Part shown: one piece after another, positions 4,016 through 63,535 of the stretch
Layout: each line of letters opens with the position of its first letter
Position numbering within the stretch: the first letter of the stretch is position 1
NCBI RefSeq assembly: GCF_036971445.1
Contig: NC_091469.1
Location: 136,028,001-136,092,000, forward strand
Length of the DNA: 64,000 bases
From: Narcine bancroftii
Lineage: Eukaryota
Direction of reading: 5' to 3'
The notes under the pieces: generated by a model
Told to the model about the DNA's origin: nothing
Database searches by the model: none
Seen by the model: only the letters and a program-made list of their open reading frames with translations
Translations under genes and position numbers: made by a program

Positions 4016-5569
4016 ATGATTTATATCTCATGCACATCAGTTCAGGAACTAAAACCAAAATCAAAAATACATTAACAACATTACAAGTAAACTGAATGGG
4101 GATGGGGATCTAAATAAAACATCAATTTGAAAACAACTGCCTTCCTGTGCTTATAACAAAAACTTGGATTTATATAACCCTTTTTTATATGTCCCAAAAT
4201 GAATACAAAAGTTGGGTGATTTTAAAATGAGCATTGTATTATTAAAACACATTTTTCTTTGCCCAGAGCAGAGATGCTTCATTTACATTCACTGTCCTTA
4301 CAGTGCACAGTGTGGTGTAACATTGTGTCAAATCTGCTGAACTTTTATGTTATCTCTCACTGTATTGATTTGACATTGTGAGGCAGTGTTCAGTACAACA
4401 AAGTGTAGTAAAATCAAATTCAATTCCTTTGTTTTCTGTGTTGAATTGAGATGAAATAAAAATACAGTAGCAAAAAGAAGCAGGTATTTCAGGGAAATTT
4501 AAAGTCACAAATGTTCTCCTAAATGTGTTGTGAACTGTTATGTAATTCATTTCAAATCACTCAAAGGCTTGAGTAGTAAAACATCAGTTTCGATGAATTG
4601 AATCTGGCAATTTATTGCAAATTAGAAATAGGGCTGGTGTTAGCAAAAGCCTTCAGTATCATTGTCCATTGCTAATTCTATCTGACCAGTTGGTTAAATT
4701 CTTATGTGAATCTCTTCTTGTGCTTCAAGCAGTAGGTGTGAAAAACATACTAATCCTTGGGAGAATGTTAGGCGGTTTTGAATAATGAATAACCATGGCT
4801 CGTATTTTTACAATACTCAACTTGGTTATTCTACTACCAGAGAGGGTGTTACATGCTGCTCAGGTGTGCAGGATGTGTGTTCAAAGTTGAGAGTTCAGAC
4901 TGTTATTGGAGCCAAGATCCAGCAGGGTCTGGGTCTGGGATATGGAACGCCATACGTCAGGAATGTAAGTAGAAGAATGGCAGCTGGAGCAGCGACCTAG
5001 AGTTGTCCATTTTCCCAGCTAATTAGCTTCACTGGAAAATGTATTAAATTACTGTGTAACTTCAAAAGAGAGAAATCAAAGTGTGATTGCATATTAATTG
5101 GAATAACATTCAATAATCTGTAAAAATCTGTTAGTCCACCACCAAAAAAAAGTCTGGATGATCCTAGAATATCAGAGTTTCACTCCATCATCCAACTGAC
5201 TGTTCAATTCCATCATTTTCAATTTTTAAAAATTTCCTAAAGAGGAAATAATTATTTTACTCAATGAACAGATGTTTCAAATTATATTTTAATATTCAAC
5301 AGCAAAAATCATAAACAATGTCCAACCTATTCCTAATCATTTTCATTATTAATCAAATGTCTGTGAGCCATTTGTCTCATCTACACACAGGTATCGCCAG
5401 TTGCAGAGTCAATGCTGAGAGAGAGCTCAATGCCAAGAGAACGTCTATTTGCTTGACAATCCTGATACCCCCTGTGTATTCCTCTGAAAGGAATCAATGT
5501 TTTAAAACTGATATTTGGAAACAAAGGGCCCTTCACCATTCAATTAAAGTTGTGTTAACTTGAGACAGC

Positions 5570-10221: not shown

Positions 10222-10878
10222 CCCCGCCATCTGATGCTGCTTGACCCACCAAGTACCTCCAGCAGTTTGACCATAGCTGCAGATTGCAAAATCTGCAATC
10301 AATTGTGTCTCCCCTGACTTCTCGGTGGCATGCTAGTGGATTTATTGGATGCCTTCGAAGGTTCCTTGGTCAATTGCTCACATTCCCCCACCATCTGATG
10401 CTGCTTGACCCACCAAGTACCTCCAGTAGTTTGACCATGGCTGCAGATTGCAAAATCTGCAATCAATTGTGTCTCCCCCGACTTCTCGGTGGCATGCTAG
10501 TGGATTTATTGGATGCCTTCCAAGGTTCCTTGGTCAATTGCTCTACATTCCCCCACCATCTGATGCTGCTTGACCCACCAAGTACCTCCAGTAGTTTGAC
10601 CATGGCTGCAGATTGCAAAATCTGCAATCAATTGTGTCTCCCCGACTTCTCGGTGGTATGCTAGTGGATTTATTGGATGCCTTCGAAGGTTCCTTGGTCA
10701 ATTGCTCTGCATTCCCCCACCATCTGATGCTGCTTGACCCACCAAGTACCTCCAGCAGTTTGACCATGGCTGCAGATTGCAAATTCTGCAATCAATTGTG
10801 TCTCCCCCGACTTCTCGGTGGTATGCTAGTGGATTGATTGGATGCCTTCGAAGGTTCCTTGGTCAATTGCTCTACATT
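10222..10878 (+). repeat. Tandem array, 4 x ~164 bp
   Basis: 'catctgatgctgcttgacccaccaagtacc' restarts at 10228, 10392, 10557 and 10721; the units are nearly identical. Confidence 0.95.
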
Positions 10879-12819: not shown

Positions 12820-15315
12820 GAAATGATCTATTTCAATGCAAGGAGCTTAGGGCATGCATTTGCACATGGAATTATGATGTCATTGATATTAGTGAGACTT
12901 GGTTGCAGGAGGGGTAGGCCTGGTAGCTCAATGTTCTGAGGCTCCGATGTTTCAGACGTGATAGAGGGGGAGAGATGAAGGGGAAGGAATGGCATTGCTA
13001 GCCAAGGAAAATATTACAGCTGTACATAGACAGAAGAGCACTGTGGACTCATCTACAGAGGCCATACGATTGGAACTAAAGAACAGGAAAGGTATGAGCA
13101 CACTAATAGGCTTGTATTATGAACCGCCCAATAGCCAAAAGAATTGGAAGTGCAAATCTGTCGGGAGACATCAGACCAATGCAAGGAACAAAGTGGTGGT
13201 AGTAAGAGATTTTAACTTTCAGTATATTGAATGGGTCTCCCATATTGTAAAAGGACTGGATGGTTTGGAGTTTGTCAAATGTGTACAGGAATGTTTTCTA
13301 AATCATTATATAGAGGTACTAGTGAGGGAGGATGCAATACTTGATCTCCTATTAGGGAATCAGGCAGGTCAGGTGGCAGAAGTCTGTTTAGGTGAGTATT
13401 TTAGGTCCAGGAGCAATCATTTCAATAGTTTCAAGTAAATTGTGGATAAGGATAGGCCTGGTTCTAAATGGGAAAAAGACAATTTTGAGGAAATGAGAAA
13501 GGATCTCAGAAGAGCTGTTTTCTGGAAAGGATGTGTCCAGCAAGTGAAAGGCCTTCAAAGGTGAAATATTGAGGGTGCAGAGTTTGAGTTTGCATGTTCC
13601 TATCAGAATTAAAGGCAACATTAACGGGCAGAGGGAACCTTAGGGATATTGGTGATATGATTAAGTAGAAGAGAGAGGTGTATAATTGGAGCAAATCAGG
13701 TACTTGTGGACTATAGAAAATGTAAGAGAAGGAAATCAGGAAGGCAAAAAAGAAGACATCAGGGTCCTTTGGCAGATAATGTGAAAGTAAATCCAAAGAG
13801 TTTCTACAAGTATATTAAGAGTAAGAGGATAACAAGGGACAAAATTGGTCCCTTAGAGGATCGAGGGGGGGGGGGGCAACTATGTGTGGAGCCTCATGAA
13901 ATGGGGGAGATCTTAAATAGATTTTTTTTGGATCAGTATTTACTCAGGAAACTAGGCATAGTGTATATGGATGAAAGGTAAACAAATAGAAATGTCATGA
14001 AAAATATGGAGATTAAGTGAATAAAGGTAGACAAATATGGGCCAGATATGATATTGCCTTGGACCATGAGGGAGACAAGTATTGAAATTGCAGGGCCCCT
14101 GAGAGCTATATTCAAAATATCCTTAGCCATGAGAGAGGTGCTCATGTTGTACCACTGTTTAAGCAAGGTTCCAACAGTAAACTGGGTAACAATAGGCCAG
14201 TGAGCCTGACATCAGTAGTAGGTAACTTAATGGAAGGAGTTCTGAGTGATAGGATATACAGGTATTTGGACAGCCATCGGGTGATTAAGGACAGTTAGTA
14301 TGATTTTGTATGTGGTAGGTCAGGTTCAATGAATCTTGTAGAGTTATTTGAGGAGCAGAATAACCAAGAAGGCAGATGAAGGAAAGGCTGTGGATGTTGT
14401 CTACATGGACAAGGCCTTCGACAAGACACTAGGTATCCATAGAGTGACTGTAAATGGGATTCAAAATTGGCTGAGTGGGGAAAAAAAGAGTGTGGTAGGG
14501 GAGAATGAGCCAGTAAATGGATGATGGAGTTTAATGCGGACAAGTGTGATATATTGCATTTTGGAAGAGAAAATCAAGGAAGGATGTCCACATAAATGGT
14601 AGGGCACTGAGGAGTGCAGAGGAGCAAAGAGACCTGGGGATAGAGGTACATTGTTCCATGAAGCTAGTGTCGCAGGTGGACAGGGCTGTAAAGAAAACTT
14701 TTGGCATCATAGCCTTTATAAATCAAAGTATTGATTATAGGAGTTGGGATGTTATGTTGAAGTTATTTAAGATATTAGTGAGGCCAAATTTGGAATATTG
14801 TGTCCAGTTCTGGTCACCTAGCTACAGGAAGGATATCAATAAGATTGAAAAAGTGCAGGAAAGATTTACTAAGATGTTGTGGGGTCTTCAGGAGTTGAGT
14901 TACAGGAAAAGATTAAACAGATTCGGTCTTTATTCCTTGGAACAAAGAATAAGGGGAGATTTGCTGGAGGTTTCCAAAATTATGAGGGGTATAGACAGAG
15001 TAATTGTGAATAGGCTGTTTGAACTTAGATTATGAGAGATAAATACGAGAGGATGAGTTTAGTATGCAAGGGGAAATGTTTAGGGGGATCTTTTTCATTT
15101 GGAGAATGGTAGGAGTGTGGAATGAGTTGCCAACTGATGTGGTGGGTGCAGACTCTATCTTAAGCTTTAAGAATAAATTGGATAGATCCATGGATAGGAG
15201 AGATCTGGAGAGTTATGGAATGGGAGCAGGTTATCAGGACTAGCTGAACAGTGGTTGGGGCAGACTAGAAGGGCCGAATGGCCTGTCTTCTGCGCTATAG
15301 CATCCTATGATTATA
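12820..15315 (+). mobile_element. CR1/HER1 LINE, long decayed ORF2 (APE + RT)
   Basis: Motifs ISETWL, DFNF, ILDLLL, NPKSFYKYIK and LVRPNLEYCVQFWSP..IEKVQERFTK, plus the tail 'gggccgaatggcctgtcttctgcgctatag'. Many stops and frameshifts. Confidence 0.9.
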
Positions 15316-44904: not shown

Positions 44905-45995
44905 AGACTACTAAAGCACAGTGCAGGTTTGTGCGACATATTTTTCTTATTAAAAAAATGTACTAATCCCTCTCTACACCGCAACCCTTTATTTTTTTAT
45001 TCCATCTATGTGGCTGTCTAAGAATCTCTTAAATGCCCCTAATTTTTCAGACTCCACCATCACCCAGGCAAGGCACCCACAACTCTCTGCATAAAAAAAA
45101 TGTACCCCTGAAGTTTCCTCTAAATTTCCCTCCTTTCACGTTGTCTGCATAATCTATCCTTAAGAATCCTCTCCAATAGTTTGCACACCACTAAGACTCA
45201 CCAGTCTATAATTCCCAGGATTCTCCCTATTACCTTACATAAACAAGGGGACTACATTTGCCTTTCTTCAATGCTCCGGCACCTCCCCTGTGACCAAAGA
45301 AGGCTCAAAGATCATAGCTACTGCCTCAGCTCTCTCTTCTCTTACTTCCCACAACAACCTGGGGTATATCGCATCTGGCCCCAGGGACTTATGAAGCTTA
45401 ATGTTTTTAAGAAGATCCAACACATCCTTAATTTCATCATTATCCAGCACACAAGCCTCATATATTCGGACCTTACCCTGATCAAGGTCCTGTTTCATTG
45501 TGAATACTGAAGCAAAGTATTCATTTAGGATCTCCCCACCATCATCCACCACCAAGCACACGTTGGCTCCTTTATCCTTTAGCTTCATTCTCATCATTTT
45601 TCTGTTCTTCAGGTAAGCATAGAATGCCTTGGAGTTCTCCTTATTCCTATCCATGGTTCCTTTTTCCTACCATCCTTTCCGTGTCCCAGTGGGACAAACC
45701 TATCCTGAACCTAACACAAGAGGTGCCTAAGCTTCTGCCACATTAAATCAGTGCTTTCACCCTTGAACATCTGTTTCCAGTTTACTCTTGATAATTCCTG
45801 CCTCACCCCATCGTAATTGCCCCTTCCCCAATTAAACACTTTCCCATTTTGTTTGCTTTTATCTTGATTCATAGTTATGCTAAAATTCAGGGAGTTGTGG
45901 TCCCTCTCACCAAAAAATCACCTCCACCGAGAGGTCCGCCACCTGTTCAGATTCATTATCCAGAATTAGATGTAGTATGGCCTCTTCTCTTCTTG
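44905..45995 (-). mobile_element. CR1 LINE fragment
   Basis: NSKAFYAYLK..LNEYFASVFT..KSLGPDAIYPRLLWE (ORF 45268-45654). Confidence 0.85.
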
Positions 45996-53714: not shown

Positions 53715-54325
53715 TAGAAACATAGAAAACGTATAGCACAATACAGGCTCTCCGGCCCACAAAGTTGTGCCAAAAATGTTCCTACCTTAGAAATTACTAA
53801 ACTTTCCCATATCCCTCTATTTTTTTAAACCTCCATGTACCTATCCGAAAATCTCTTGAAGGACCCTAACATACCACTCTCTGTTTAAAAAAACCGTACC
53901 CTTGACATCTTCTCTATACCCAGTTCCCAGCATCTTAAGCCTGTGTCCTCTTGTGGCAACCATTTCAGATGGGGGAAAAAGCCTCTGACTATCTACACGA
54001 TCAATACCTTTCATCATCTTAAACACCTCTATCAGGTCACCTCTCAACCTCTGCTGCTCCAAAGAGAAAAGGCCGAGTTTACTCAACCTGTTTTCATAAG
54101 GCATGCTTCCTAAACCAGGCAAAATTCTTGTAAATCTCCTCTGCACCCTTTCTATGGCTTCCACATCCTTCCAGTAGTGAGGTAACCAGAACTCCGCACA
54201 GTATTCCAAGTGGGGTCTGATCAGGGTCCTAAAAAGCTGCAACATTACCTCTCGCCTCCTAAATTCAATTAACAGATTAATGAAGGCCCATATACCATAT
54301 GCCTTCTTAACCACAGAATCATTCT
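53715..54325 (-). mobile_element. CR1 LINE 3' fragment
   Basis: LFRTLIRPHLEYCAEFWLP..IERVQRRFTR; tail (catagaaa)2. Confidence 0.9.
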
Positions 54326-55312
54326 GATTCATAACCAACCTATTAAACAGCAATTGTTTAGAACATGGAAGGAAGACAGAGGAGCCAGGAGAGACACATA
54401 CAAACACAGGAAGAACAAGCAAACTCCACACAGAAAACTCCAGAGGTCAGGATTGAACCGGTTGCTGGAGTTGTGAACTAGCAGCTCTATCAGTTGTGTG
54501 ACTGTGCCCCTACTGTAATGAATGAATGAATGAATTTAAAAGAAGACAGCTAAGCTTTGTGAAATATGTGAATGAGAGAGGGGCATTGGAGAAGGAAATG
54601 AAAAGATTAAAAAAATAAGTTCTTTTCCATCATGATGCATTTTGGGGCATCTTCTTCATCCACAGACTTCACCATATTCTGCAGAATGTAACAGTCATAG
54701 AACATGGATTCAATTTGCTATAGTTAAACAAATAGACGTTTCTGTCAAATACAGAATAGAATTTCCACCTGCACAGTGGTGCCATTGTTTTCCAACTAAA
54801 AGAATAGAGTGTCACTATGTCTGTCTTGCTTATTTATTTTGGCAGTTTGGAAGACTCTCACCTTGTTTCCAAAGTATGAAAGTGTTGAGCTATTAACAGT
54901 CAGTTCTTCAAATGAGAAATAAAAGCCCACACCATTATTTTTGTTTTGATAGCCCATATGCTCAATATTCTGGAAGACCTTTGTCCATCTGTTGAAACTT
55001 AACCGAGATGAAATAGTCATTTAATTGTCCTTATATTCATTCCCACTGTGTAAAAATGACATTAATTCAAAATAAATTATCATAGTTACGTGATTTATGT
55101 TTGAGACATTTTATTGGATGCTACATAAATACAATACTTAATTTCAATCATTTGCCTGGTCATCAGCTGAACTATATATCAAATTGTCATTCATAATTAT
55201 CAGACCGCTATGTTGTCCTCACTCATGGTATATGACAAGATACATTTTATTTCAAGGATGCAATCCACAGAATATGCATCATCCTTTTTATGAGCCCTTA
55301 TTTTCCCACATG

Positions 55313-55686: not shown

Positions 55687-56368
55687 TATTCTTGTTGAGG
55701 CTTAAATGTTGATTCCCCCTAGAGAAATGTGCAAAGCTGGCCAAGGGTGCATTGAGGTCTACGGCAGATGCCATCTAATAGACTCTACACATAGCCCTGG
55801 AATACCTGGACAGCAAAGATGGAGACATCGACTACAGTTTGGCATTCAACATCACCATCCCCTCAAAATTGATCAGTAAGTTGACCTGTGACTCAACATC
55901 GCATCGCATCTTGGATTTTCAGAACACAATCAGTGAGGATTGGTAAGAACATTTCCTCCACAATCTCCATCAGTACCAGAGCACCATAGGGCTGTGTTCT
56001 TAGCTCCCTGCTCTACTCGCTTCACACCTATGATGTGAGGCTCAGTTCGACAACAACACCATCTACAAATTCGCTGATTATACAATGGTAGTGGGTTGTT
56101 TAAAAGGGGAGATGAGTCAGCACACAGAAAGGAGATGGAAAATTTGCCTGAATGGTGCACCAACAACAACCTCACACTCAATATCACCAAATCCAAGGAG
56201 CCGATTGTTGACTTCAGGAAGGGAAAACTAGGGGCGTGGCAAGATGGCGTAGGGAACAGACGTGCCTTCCAGACCTCTCCTGACTCTGATTTATTGTTTT
56301 GTCTTTAAGTGCCCGTTAAAGTTCTTTTAAAAGTTTATAAATAATAAGAGGTGTTGGATTAGTGCCTA

Positions 56369-57767
56369 ATGGTTTATATGCAAAAAAAAAGGTAAAAGAA
56401 AACATCAACAGACTGTTAAAAAACTATATTTTCCGAAATTGTCTGAGCCTACTTGTTTACAAGAAGCCAGGATTCAGCGTAGAATGGATCCAGAGGAAGA
56501 CGTACAGAGTTCGGCATTGAAACTCCGTTTTAAGCCGGTGAGGCTCTTTGAAGGTCGCATTCAACAGCTTTCAGACCAAAGAGCTGGACGGGTGCCAGTA
56601 TTTCACACAACGGCCACTGTGAGTGCTGTTACTCAGACTTTGACAGTTGAATCAGCTGGGGCACCACCAGCTGGAGTGTTAAAGAGCTGTCATTCGACTG
56701 CTACAGTGGTGGCGCTGCAAAATGCATCTTCAATTACAACAGTTTTTCTAGACATCGATTCAGTGAAGATGATTAAAGAGATTTGGCTTAAAGATAACTC
56801 TGATCTTCAGTCTCCTGGCATTGCTGGGGGGACTTTGAGAGGGATTTTTATATGAAGTCAAACTGCTAGAAAAGATACTAAATTAAGAGAAGGGACAGAA
56901 GATCCCGTGGTCTCTAAGGAACAGCAAGACCCCATTATGCCTGAATCTACTTCTGTTGAAATGTCTGTTAAGGATCCTGAAGATAAGATATATTCAGTAT
57001 CGAGTCACTTAGCTAATTTTATGAACCTGTTTATTTCCAAGATTAATGCGATGGCAGAGGTCATTAATGGAGCTTTTAAGCTTGAAACCATTGAAAGATT
57101 TGAAATGTGTGATCAAGGTTTAGTCGATGCACAGGATCAACTGCAAGATGAAAATAGAATAATTGAAACATTGCAGATCCAAAATAAAAATTTAGCAAAA
57201 AAGGTTGATTATTTGGAGAATCAATCTAGACAGAACAACGTGAAAATTGTTGGTTTGCCAGAAGGCATAGAAGGACCAGATCCAAGAAAATTTTTTACTG
57301 AATGGATTCCATGAGTGTTAGGACAGGATAAATTCCCTGAAGGTTTAATACTGGAACGTGCTTATAGGGTTTTAAGAAGAAAATCTTTTTCAGGACAGAA
57401 TCCAAGATGGATCCATTGTTTAAACTATTGTGACAGAGAGACAATTTTATGTATGGCTATTAGAAATGCCCAGCAAAATAGATCTCCTTTGATGGTTCAG
57501 AATAATCCTGTTTTCTTCTATCAAGATTTGAGTCAAGAAATTATGTTTCAACGACGCAAATTTAATTCTGTGAAAGAACGGTTGTGGAAAAAAAGACATA
57601 AGGGAACATTCAGGTATTCTGCAGTACTGAAGATTTTTTAGGATGGAAATTAGCCAAAGTTCTTTGACAATCCTAAAGAGGTTATGGACTTTGCTTAGTC
57701 TCTACCAATCATTCAGTTTCAGGAACGATGTAGTTCTTCAAGGTCTCCAAAGAAAGTAGAGATGTAA
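56369..57767 (+). pseudogene. L1 ORF1p (coiled coil-RRM-CTD), disabled by in-frame stops
   Basis: ORFs 56439, 56907 and 57315 share one frame. Motifs LENQSRQNNVKIVGLPEGIEG, LERAYR, FFYQDLS and YSAVLKI. Confidence 0.9.
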
Positions 57768-57981
57768 GGTGGGATCCAGATTTTTAAAAGAAATGGAAGC
57801 AATGGTGACCGAAGTGGTAACGTTGATTTAAAAAAATAAATTTTTTATCTTTTTTTTGAGAAATGTTTAAATAGTTTAAATAATGATGATATTTTATTGT
57901 AATTGAGAGGGAATTATGAGGTTTTTTTTCTCTTTCTTTTCTCTTTTTGAGTTTTTTTTCTCTTTTTTCTTTCTTTTTTAA

Positions 57982-58191
57982 GAGGATGATGTCACAGAAG
58001 ATAATAAGTCAAAAATTGAGGATGTTGAATTAGATGAAGAGGAAGATGAGTGGAAAGGTGATAAGAAGAAAAAGAAGAAAATTAAGAACAAATACATTGA
58101 GGGAGAAGAGTTCAATAAAATTAAGTTAATTTCGATAGAGAATTTTGAAGATGTTATAAATGAAGAATATGGAGAATTTTATAAGAGTTTG
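57982..58191 (+). pseudogene. HSP90AA1: Captured HSP90-alpha coding fragment (charged linker to start of middle domain)
   Basis: 70 stop-free codons [70 protein letters not shown]. They align without gaps to HSP90 [62 protein letters not shown] favours alpha over beta (QEEY). Confidence 0.9.
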
Positions 58192-59964
58192 AACTTTTTT
58201 TTCTTTTTTTATATAAGGGGAGGGGAAGGGAATAAAAAGTTTATCTGATTGTTTTTCTAAGGGATGTTTTTGTTCTCTCGATAAATTATAAAGGAAACTT
58301 GGTATTAATGGAAATTCTGTATTTATGTATTATTAATTATGATTTTTTTGTATAACAGATATGTGGTTGATATATGATTTTAATATTTGAACTTAGTTTT
58401 AAAGTGGATTTCATTTGTTAAATACATGTATTATGTTTGATTTAAATATATGTTTAAGGGTATTATTTTAGTATTGATTTTTTTTGTTAGTAAATTAGAT
58501 GATTAATGTTGTGTTATAATTATTGGGGGGGTTAATTTGTGTAGTTTAATGATGTAGTATTCTAATTTTTATTATCTTATTTTTTATTATTTCTTTAAAT
58601 GTAATTTTTATTTTATTCATGTCATAAAATTTTAAATAAAGTTTAAAAAAAAAAGGAAGGGAAAACTAGAGGTGTATGATCCATTAGTCATTGAGGGATC
58701 AGAGGGGAGAGTTCTTGGAAATCCACTATCTATCAAGGATCTTTCCTAGACCCCACACACAAATTGTATCATGAAGAAAGCATGTCAGTGACTTGACTTC
58801 CTTAGAAGTTTGTGGAAGAATGGTATGACATTGGAAACCCTGGCAAATTTCTACAGAGGTGTGGTGGAAAGTTTGCTGTCTGGCTGCATAATGATCTGGC
58901 ATGGAGACACCAATACCCCTGAGTTTAAAACTCTGCAAAAGGTAGTGGACACAGCGCATGGCATCACAGATAAAACTCTCCCATCATAGAAAACATCTAC
59001 AGGGAACACTGCCATCAGAGAGCAACAGGAATCATCAAGGATTCACATCACCCAGCACATGCTCTGTTCTCACTGCTACCATCAGGAAAAAGGTATAAGT
59101 TCCATAATACGCGCACCAACAGATTCAGGTACGTCTGTTATCCCTCCACCATCAGACATCAAACTCAATAAGACACTCACTTTAGGAGTTACTTTTGCAC
59201 TTTATTGATTTTCTCTGTTTTCCACAGTCAATTTGTTTACAAGTGTATGTTGAGTGCAGGTTTTTGCACTACCAATTAGTGGTAATTCTGCCTTGCCACT
59301 AGGGAAAAGAGTCTCAGGATTGTATGTGATGTCATTTATTTATTCTGTCAATAAATCTGAAAATTTGGAATACACCCAATGTCTTTTGTTGTTATTCTCT
59401 GGGATATGGATAAAGATCTAACAGCTCATTAATGTCTGAAGAAGAAGATGCGCCTTGCTTTGATCCTCAAAGCTCATGAGAATGCTTCCTCCACACCACA
59501 GAGTTCATTCTGCCCACAAACTTCACAGATCAGATGGATGAAAGTTTCACGTGCCAGGGATAAGTTGCAAAGTCTTGTATCACCTATGTATTAGGATGTA
59601 AATATGGAGGAGCCTTGATCAGCCTACTTCCTTCCTGGGAAGGAATAGTAAAACACAAAATGCTCAAGGAACTCAGCAGGTCAGCAGTGTCCATAGGAGA
59701 AAAAGAGATTTTACCAATATTTCACTCCTGATGCCTTCGTCAAGGTATGAGCAAGAATCAGGTAGACACTGAATACAAGGTGGGCTGAATGGAGAGTTAA
59801 ACTTGACATCTCAACATAAATTCTGCCTGCTCAATAAAAATTAGAGCAATTTTCCATGACATTAGGGGAAGTAGTTCCCTTGTTTGCAGTTGTAATAATT
59901 TCAAAAAGAGAGTACATTTATCTCATATAGACCTTTATGATAAAGGTTTTCAGATTATATTCTG

Positions 59965-62314: not shown

Positions 62315-63535
62315 AATAGAACATTACAGCACAGTACAGGTCCTTCTGCCCTTGATGTAGAGCCGACCACTATAAACCTAGTCATCAATCTAAATACTCC
62401 CTACCTCACACTCATAGCCCTTTATTTTTCTTGTATCCATGCGCCTGTCCAGGAGTCTATAAAATATCCCTATTGTACCAGCCTCCACCATCACACCAGG
62501 CAACATATTCCAACCACCACTATTTTCTGTGTAAAAAAATGTACTCCTGGCCTCTCTTTGAAATGTTTCTCCCCTCACCTTGTGCAGATGTCCTCTGGTG
62601 CTTGCTACTCTCGCCCCAGAAAAAAAGTGCTGACTCTCCATCCTTTCTCTGCCTCTCCTAATCTTGTAGACCTCTATGAAGTCATCTTTCATCCTCCTTT
62701 GGTCCAGAGAAGCCCTAGCTCTGCTAACCTTGCCTCATAAGGCAACATCCTTGTAAATCTCTACTGCACCCTTTCCATAGTTTCCACATCCTTTCTGTAA
62801 TTAGGTGATAAGAACTAAACACATATTCCAAGTGTGTTCTAACCAGAGTTTTATAGTGCTGCAACATTATCTCATGATTCTTGAACTCATTTCCCCAACT
62901 AATGAAGGCCAGCATATCATCACCTTCTTAACTACCCTATCGACCTATGCAACAATCTTGAATTTGGCCCCAAAATCCCTCTTTTCTTCCACACTATTAA
63001 GAATCCTGCCATTTTTCAAAAATGTATCACTTCACACTTCTCCAGATTGAACTCCATCCACCACTTCTCTGCACAACTCTGCATGCTGTCCATATTCTGC
63101 TGTAACTTATGACAACCTTTTACATTATTCATGGAACCTCCAACATTGTGTCATCTGCAAATTTACTGACTCATCCTTCCACTTCCGTCCAGGTCATTTA
63201 TAAAAATCACAAAGAGCAGGAATCCCAGGACAGATCCCTGTGGAAATCCACTAGTCACTGACCTCCTGGCAGAATACACTTAATTTACTACTACCCTCTG
63301 CTTCCTACAAGCAAGCCAATTCTGAATTCACACAGTTAGGGTTCCATGGATCCCAAACATCATAACATTCTGACTGAGTCTACCACAGTGGACCTTGTCA
63401 AATGCTTTACTAAAATACATGTACACCATACCTACTACTTTACCTTCATCAATTTATTTTGTCACTTAAAAAAACTCCATTAGGATCACATGGCATGACT
63501 TGACCCTGACAAAGCCATGCTGACTATCCCAGAGA
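62315..63535 (-). mobile_element. CR1 LINE RT to 3' fragment
   Basis: Reverse of FSKAFDKV, SKFADDT and YKTLVRTHLEY motifs, plus a CR1 tail. Confidence 0.9.

Follow-up and report, generated by a model that had tools for sequence, protein, structure and literature searches.

An ORF1-only LINE-1 family of Narcine bancroftii carries a captured hsp90aa1 exon piece that reports a strand-specific, inheritance-linked mutation bias

The window analyzed here, a stretch of 64,000 nucleotides from Narcine bancroftii (assembly GCF_036971445.1, contig NC_091469.1, positions 136,028,001–136,092,000 of the forward strand), contains a retroelement with an HSP90-like coding fragment at the place where the second open reading frame of a LINE-1 (L1) would lie. 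This raises the questions of where the fragment came from, how it entered a mobile element, and why it is so strongly diverged. An earlier reading of the letters (the sequence-only reading) had described 70 codons without a stop at positions 57982–58191 and assigned them to HSP90-alpha, and both statements were borne out. Against solved structures, this segment matched HSP90-alpha chains with an E-value of 5.8e-14 and HSP90-beta with 4.9e-13, it matched the Pfam HSP90 family above the cut-off (PF00183; E = 8.5e-8, 32 bits, cut-off 24.4), and the nearest sequence at the DNA level was the host alpha exon. Positions 57980–58192 aligned with the host hsp90aa1 exon at G000:C5:41593676–41593888 without gaps over 213 nt, with 82.6% identity, whereas a second cytosolic-type HSP90 locus (C15) aligned with gaps and with 75.6% identity. 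The C5 exon translates into residues identical to those of P0006, the protein listed by NCBI as HSP90-alpha of Narcine bancroftii. Both the piece and P0006 have a linker that is one residue shorter and the D of TEDD, and both carry E at a site that is Q in 12 of 12 other proteins from cartilaginous fish; an old copy of the element shows this host-lineage E directly. These shared residues point to the host's own hsp90aa1 as the donor, in a lineage already separate from the other sampled rays. The choice between a host and a foreign donor, which the earlier reading had proposed to check, thus fell to the host, and a foreign donor was ruled out by the identity to the host gene and the P0006-specific residues. 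The piece starts and ends inside one exon and crosses no intron, and therefore mRNA and DNA templates are indistinguishable. A processed pseudogene of hsp90aa1 was rejected, as the piece has no A tail or duplication of its own and lies within one exon.

The piece is part of a 2.4-kb insertion (56232–58654), with a perfect 15-bp duplication on both sides and AATAAA and an A run at the 3′ end (Table 1). The element had been called ORF1-only, with a perfect target-site duplication, and both descriptions were right; remnants of ORF2 were also found 3′ of the HSP90 piece. The copy in the window is a dead element. Its ORF1 is shifted out of frame in an A run close to the start and is interrupted by TGA codons at 56853 and 57312 and by a CAG>TAG stop at 57639 that is present in about 70% of the sampled copies. 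It also lacks approximately 238 nt of spacer near 57896–57903, where other copies hold a conserved hairpin block, and approximately 98 nt of the tail near 58491. There are 2–7 C per 100 bases over positions 57800–58700 (11 in the pyrimidine tract), compared with approximately 22 in the flanks. The poly-pyrimidine tracts that had been noted on both sides of the piece are present, but neither is part of what was captured: the upstream tract is native T-rich L1 spacer and the downstream tract is eroded ORF2 sequence. The element sits within an older LINE-like stretch on the + strand (window 55700–56231 and 58670–59300; reverse-transcriptase-like by eye), and an old copy at locus L134 likewise seems to be embedded in LINE sequence. 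Elsewhere in the window, positions 10222–10878 hold a tandem array of four 164-nt units that are 96% alike.

Table 1. Features of the element copy and its flanking duplications, in window positions
Feature	Positions	Strand
Left target-site duplication, 15 bp	56217–56231	+
L1 5′ UTR, common to autonomous L1 (family B) and family C	56232–56368	+
L1 ORF1, broken in this copy	56369–57641	+
End of ORF1 and ORF1–ORF2 spacer, closing with the native L1 pyrimidine tract (57921–57979)	57642–57979	+
Captured host hsp90aa1 piece, 213 nt: charged linker and start of middle domain	57980–58192	+
Chimeric splice-acceptor AG: L1 pyrimidine tract and AG from the HSP90 piece	57981–57982	+
ORF2 remnant (about 5090–5300 of L1 copy L186), C-depleted, its first part decayed to a T run	58193–58404	+
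Last ORF2 codons, L1 3′ UTR, AATAAA at 58635, A tail	58399–58654	+
Right target-site duplication, 15 bp	58655–58669	+

An exact pattern of 29 places from the piece had 812 matches in the genome, one of which is the host gene by its letters, and the reversed control pattern had none; the family, designated family A, therefore has at least 811 copies by exact 29-mer matching. The best 40 of 1038 candidate hits of the piece were all full length and 99–100% identical, and most of the family A copies fetched were nearly whole, approximately 2.75 kb long, and 1–3% away from the column majority. Near-whole ORF1 frames of 403–409 codons were found in 5 of 74 family A loci. A sister ORF1, P0128 (66% identical), matched human LINE-1 ORF1p structures with an E-value of 6e-5, and a Pfam search gave no L1 ORF1 hit. 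Through ORF1 relatives we reached family B, an L1 that bears ORF2. Family A is 78–82% identical to ORF2-bearing L1 copies over the 5′ UTR, ORF1, spacer, and tail. Compared with L186 of family B, it matches through the 5′ UTR, ORF1, and the spacer to approximately 40 nt before the ORF2 start. Next come the HSP90 piece, the stretch of ORF2 that corresponds to about 5090–5300, the final ORF2 codons, and the 3′ UTR. From this order, the piece replaces approximately 2.85 kb of ORF2, in agreement with the sense orientation at the ORF2 position that had been described. Target-site duplications were found in the window copy and in L134. Family A is probably mobilized in trans by L1 ORF2, as suggested by the tail that it has in common with family B. 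The dN/dS ratio in the C-terminal half of ORF1 was 0.15 between families A and B, over an interval that includes time before the loss of ORF2. The proposal that an ancestor captured the piece, which then spread with a non-autonomous L1 family, was upheld by the 812 pattern matches and their common element context, and the genome-wide check gave many copies in the same ORF1-to-tail context rather than a single insertion.

Family C is a second ORF1-only L1 family, without the HSP90 piece. Its loci L189–L191 (G000:C8:179.07 Mb, C11:97.97 Mb, and C15:162.46 Mb) are approximately 2.9 kb long; they have no host piece, and their endonuclease remnant is C-depleted and seems to be duplicated in part. 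We also observed a chimeric subfamily, in which a family B ORF1 and approximately 650 nt of endonuclease are followed by the 3′ half of family A, HSP90 piece included. An A-type second segment was present in 10 of 25 loci with a B-type ORF1, including L187 and L188, and these B/A chimeras show that the RNAs of these L1s recombine. The RefSeq models P0129, P0134, and P0130 join an ORF1 from these L1 families to, respectively, a protein like GALNT6, one like GPR139, and an unnamed one; the fusions may reflect exonization or may be artefacts of the models.

The ORF1–ORF2 spacer of all three families contains a conserved 89-nt block (L134:4156–4244 (−), L186:6663–6751 (−), and L189:6266–6354 (−)), in which 62 of 89 columns are invariant and which retains its C. 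The block persists in the two families without ORF2 and is missing from the window copy at the spacer deletion near 57896–57903. Its hairpins contain one compensatory pair among 26, the fold was no better than that of shuffled sequences (z = −0.77), and there is only a hint that C has survived in the stems. A search of Rfam gave no match in L134 or L186. Fish L1 spacers are described as long and T-rich (PMC5381506).

We consider it fairly probable that the family goes back to a host L1 in which most of ORF2 was replaced by the hsp90aa1 piece in a single double-jump entry, and that the piece has since been a passenger whose C was lost in the copying cycle. Reverse transcription would have started on L1 RNA, switched templates to copy 213 nt of the abundant hsp90aa1 mRNA, and then switched back into the L1 spacer. 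The chimera would have retained the promoter, ORF1, and tail, with an autonomous relative supplying the ORF2 that copied it in trans. Pieces of hsp90aa1 have been inserted singly at six other loci, which shows that the template was abundant. Five of these (L045, L046, L048, L056, and L057) are short pieces of 130–200 nt without an A tail, from nearly the same part of the last hsp90aa1 coding exons, and several of them share one end; L049 is a spliced, 5′-cut processed hsp90aa1 pseudogene with a duplication. For the origin step only, an alternative is DNA repair, in which a break in a genomic L1 would have removed most of ORF2 and been patched with a piece templated by hsp90aa1. Such templated insertions are known (PMC5110952), and the five short pieces without an A tail and the lack of clear microhomology at the present junctions fit this origin. 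However, a double jump would account for the sense orientation and for the L1 sequence that flanks the piece in its proper order, such a jump has been described for a fungal LINE (PMC2104539), and the B/A chimeras show recombination of L1 RNAs, so that repair seems an unlikely origin, although one that deserves attention.

The heavy divergence of the piece had been taken to suggest capture by an ancestor. The ancestral capture stands, but the divergence is not just a matter of age: half of it is a single strand-specific change, C>T. In the window copy, 19 of the 23 host C have become T on the sense strand, at all codon positions, whereas only 5 of 51 G have become A (Fisher's exact test, p = 1e-9). 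CpG decay was rejected as the cause, as 0 of the 19 changed C lie in CpG. The common young type of the family has lost 20 of the 23 host C to T, and an older copy (G000:C1:167067780, L065/L134), 88% identical to the young type, 13 of 23. Twelve C>T columns are common to old and young, six are found only in the young type and one only in the old, and four sites are ambiguous, with the old state taken from one locus and host-side changes left unpolarized; one C/T site is still mixed among the young copies. Two targeted sequence patterns found no further old copies; apart from the host gene and the old copy already known, they matched 10 young copies that have the host letter at a single site. 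A single burst of editing at capture is ruled out by this stepwise loss, with the old copy half-way. The same direction was seen in other reporters, in comparisons that use family B as a stand-in for the parent L1: the ORF2 remnant of family C has C>T at 31 of 42 C and G>A at 8 of 72 G relative to L1 ORF2, and that of family A has 14 of 28 and 5 of 42, respectively. In the control set, the one-off hsp90aa1 insertions at six loci, the counts were 5 of 251 for C>T and 9 of 282 for G>A. L1 ORF2 itself has C at only 4 of 141 fourfold and 11 of 121 twofold pyrimidine sites, and host exon stretches have C at 20 of 75 twofold sites; the composition of L1 ORF2 is already at the end state of C loss. 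Four other pieces in the window (12965–15035 (+), 45268–45666 (−), 53841–54446 (−), and 62390–62734 (−)), which we take to be CR1-like, have C at 60 of 207 twofold sites, compared with 11 of 121 in L1 ORF2, the pieces being decayed. On their sense strand, G exceeds C, more weakly than in the L1 clade.

To separate inherited from private changes, we aligned 64 clean family A copies from the 74 long loci, with duplicates and loci with foreign sequence dropped and CpG and homopolymer columns left out, and counted changes against the column majority or outgroups; the 64 copies are the best hits to three queries and not a random draw from the family. Singletons showed no strand bias: C>T occurred 63 times on 210 C and G>A 111 times on 437 G (p = 0.29), with 102 T>C and 96 A>G. 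Among variants present in at least four copies, which stem from one lineage with mosaic haplotypes, there were 20 C>T, 14 T>C, 2 G>A, and 1 A>G (p = 2e-8 for C>T versus G>A and 1e-3 for T>C versus A>G), that is, 34 C/T changes against 3 G/A changes. Changes that have passed through source elements are thus almost all sense-strand C/T changes, whereas changes that arose in place are symmetric. When two agreeing outgroups were used for the 5′ part, the counts were 14 C>T, 15 T>C, 3 G>A, and 1 A>G, some of them in a poorly aligned pyrimidine tract; in the ORF1 region, with two ambiguous sites omitted, they were 13, 7, 2, and 1, respectively (p = 5e-4). Six linked C>T changes, two of which are ORF1 stops, mark the commonest subfamily; this linked set could be one event, and mosaic intermediates exist. 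In all, four inherited C>T changes create ORF1 stop codons, a pattern that speaks for pressure and not for a benefit; two of the four are carried by about 70% of copies. No hyper-edited copy was found among the 64; C>T changes per copy had a mean of 2.3, a variance of 2.1, and a maximum of 6. Inherited C>T changes showed a slight lean toward a TC context (9 of 14, with 54 of 126 available). An excess of C>T among private variants was absent from singletons and was 0.6 per copy for variants in up to three copies, which are not independent. In family B ORF1 (23 copies), inherited changes comprised 5 C>T versus 4 G>A (p = 0.33; 4 versus 4 by the minority method) and 8 T>C versus 1 A>G. Family C (15 copies) had almost no inherited variants, with 0 to 3 per class, and the 29 copies of a CR1-like control family were only 82–85% alike, too old for this test.

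A passenger that loses C in the copying cycle, the reading preferred above, would fit these patterns if each cycle added a small dose of sense-strand pyrimidine changes between transcription and integration. Per site, C>T would be approximately five times T>C, and both would be far above G/A changes; unconstrained passengers would fall to about 5–10% C, while ORF1 codons and paired hairpin C would persist. The small private excess caps the dose at approximately 0.005 per C per cycle, and at least approximately 400 successive cycles would thus be needed to bring 23 C down to 3. As to the source of the bias, the excess of T>C over A>G leads us tentatively to favor miscopying of pyrimidine templates by the polymerase over deamination of C to U in the RNA; the former is a possibility somewhat short of even, and the latter is rather doubtful.

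The loss may instead have occurred in DNA, if the displaced sense strand of highly transcribed source copies were deaminated, spontaneously or by AID/APOBEC, and only sources transmitted their changes. This predicts sense-strand C>T in inherited but not in private variants, as observed, and the slight TC preference fits it as well. However, it leaves the excess of T>C over A>G (7 versus 1 in ORF1) unexplained, and the lack of a hyper-edited copy among the 64 speaks against it; we regard this route as improbable. A genome search for APOBEC_N gave one locus, presumably APOBEC2-like by its motifs, which is weak evidence from an insensitive search that missed even AID. Selection is another candidate: a C-poor, U-rich RNA might be better transcribed, packaged, or copied, or might escape host defence, and a selective filter would leave private mutations symmetric and inherited ones biased. 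Reviews lean toward selection for L1 composition (PMC9099904, PMC7140322). Nevertheless, selection would require that nearly every C>T in 2.7 kb was favored, including the four that make stop codons; an excess of inherited changes is likewise seen for T>C, and inherited G/A changes are nearly absent (3 versus 34) rather than neutral in number. We consider selection improbable too, and marginally less credible than deamination of DNA.

The sequence-only reading had further connected the piece with the role of HSP90 in silencing and with small RNAs that could cross-target hsp90. PIWI slicing tolerates mismatches, and the longest perfect match to the host is 21 nt (58158–58178), where such targeting would be possible, with windows of 26–30 nt that have 2 mismatches to the host; in addition, the frame of the piece has no stop in 81 of 88 loci and a stop in 7. 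In a neutral simulation that placed the observed letter changes at random (20,000 trials), a run of at least 21 nt occurred in 47% of trials (p = 0.47), the frame stayed open in 71% (p = 0.71), and 21 amino-acid changes were expected against 18 observed (p = 0.21). Since the open frame and the 21-nt match are as in neutral decay, a peptide or piRNA role is unsupported; a coding function was rejected on these values, the match to the host was not above the neutral level and shows no sign of having been preserved, and the proposed link to silencing was not supported. A functional piece, either seeding small RNAs against hsp90aa1 mRNA that weaken silencing or kept as a coding exon as the RefSeq REXO4 models that terminate in it might suggest, is therefore very improbable, as the host piece has no CAA, CAG, or CGA codon that C>T could turn into a stop, C>T steadily erodes the match to the host, family C has spread without the piece, and the piece lies downstream of ORF1 without a start codon.

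The splice acceptor that had been proposed upstream of the piece was partly confirmed: the same AG is used at another copy by RefSeq models, but it is not derived from the tract, since the AG comes from the HSP90 piece itself, and the acceptor is a by-product of the L1/HSP90 junction. In the REXO4 isoform models X1 and X2 (P0122 and P0003), the transcript leaves the exon ending in LVK and, within the intron that follows, enters a family A copy at this AG. The intronic copy is a whole family A element, in which a net 35-nt deletion brings the HSP90 frame into X1/X2; the X3 and X4 models use normal exons. These models support the view that the cryptic acceptor may be usable. Among contigs from four runs of one study that we guessed to be RNA, the 15 listed of 69 contained no joint between the REXO4 donor (G000:C1, about 83763135) and the acceptor (about 83754998), a result that speaks neither for nor against such a joint, and contig depth over the REXO4 element may come from copy number.

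If these readings hold, errors specific to the copying cycle would set the strand composition of L1 and would be invisible to studies based on singletons, the piece would act as a cycle counter over hundreds of successive rounds, and a mobile splice acceptor would add HSP90-like tails to host proteins such as REXO4. A vertebrate LINE derivative that has amplified an internal piece of a host coding exon more than 800-fold, with an acceptor at hand, would also be a route of exon shuffling. That the L1 clade as a whole is under an RNA-virus-like C-to-U pressure in its copying cycle, with the HSP90 piece as reporter, cycle counter, and mobile acceptor, is a broader proposal to which we give almost an even chance. 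Among open-licence papers and preprints (Repbase and Dfam being outside this scope), we found neither this family nor any case in which a captured piece of a gene had served to report mutations, and the finding is of value because the piece is a natural reporter of a mutation bias that is specific to one strand and linked to inheritance.

The capture is real and family-wide, and the element is a variant of HAL1, an ORF1-only L1 derivative of several origins (PMC5753468). Like HAL1, the families described here are non-autonomous, ORF1-only L1 derivatives that arose more than once (families A and C). Family A has an L1-type ORF1 (the ORF1p match of P0128 and the near-whole frames in 5 of 74 loci), has lost ORF2 except for short decayed remnants, and has a parental L1 and an amplified family with an A tail and duplication. 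Unlike HAL1, it occurs in a cartilaginous fish, has a host coding piece in place of ORF2, and has kept ORF2 remnants, and its commonest young subfamily has an ORF1 shortened by C>T stops. The ORF1 of HAL1 was reportedly kept under purifying selection; in family A, the dN/dS ratio of 0.15, which includes time before the loss of ORF2, stands beside the four inherited stops. A known family bearing a host exon is SVA_F1, which carries MAST2 exon 1 (PMC5753468). It resembles family A as a retroelement subfamily that spreads host exon sequence; however, MAST2 was spliced onto the 5′ end of the element and supplies a promoter, whereas the HSP90 piece is internal, is cut within an exon, and shows no function. 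Template jumps are also known from chimeric retrotranscripts such as U6/L1 and the tripartite chimeras of Magnaporthe (PMC4476161, PMC2104539), in which L1-type reverse transcription likewise joins different RNAs. Those chimeras are mostly dead single copies, whereas the family A chimera gave rise to more than 800 copies and also became part of a second chimeric subfamily.

With regard to the mutation bias, APOBEC3 editing is similarly a strand-specific loss of cytosine tied to retrotransposition, but it gives plus-strand G>A (PMC9099904), in clustered, hyper-edited copies, whereas the change here is plus-strand C>T, gradual, and without a hyper-edited copy among 64. An APOBEC3-type hyper-edited element was thus rejected on the plus-strand C>T, the Poisson-like counts per copy, and a TC lean that is only weak. 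According to one review, which leans toward selection, mutation patterns in young copies fail to explain the strand bias of L1 (PMC9099904), and a composition study used singletons and left out shared mutations on purpose (PMC7140322). In family A, a host sequence whose starting state is known reveals in which direction the bias acts and how large it is; the bias is seen only in shared mutations, and these two properties together make it a direct test of mutation against selection. Plus-strand RNA viruses are under C-to-U pressure, and their sense strand is likewise poor in C and rich in U, with C preserved in stems. Unlike these viruses, family A, in which the cause may be a different one, is a genomic retroelement whose captured piece has a known pre-capture sequence as a yardstick.
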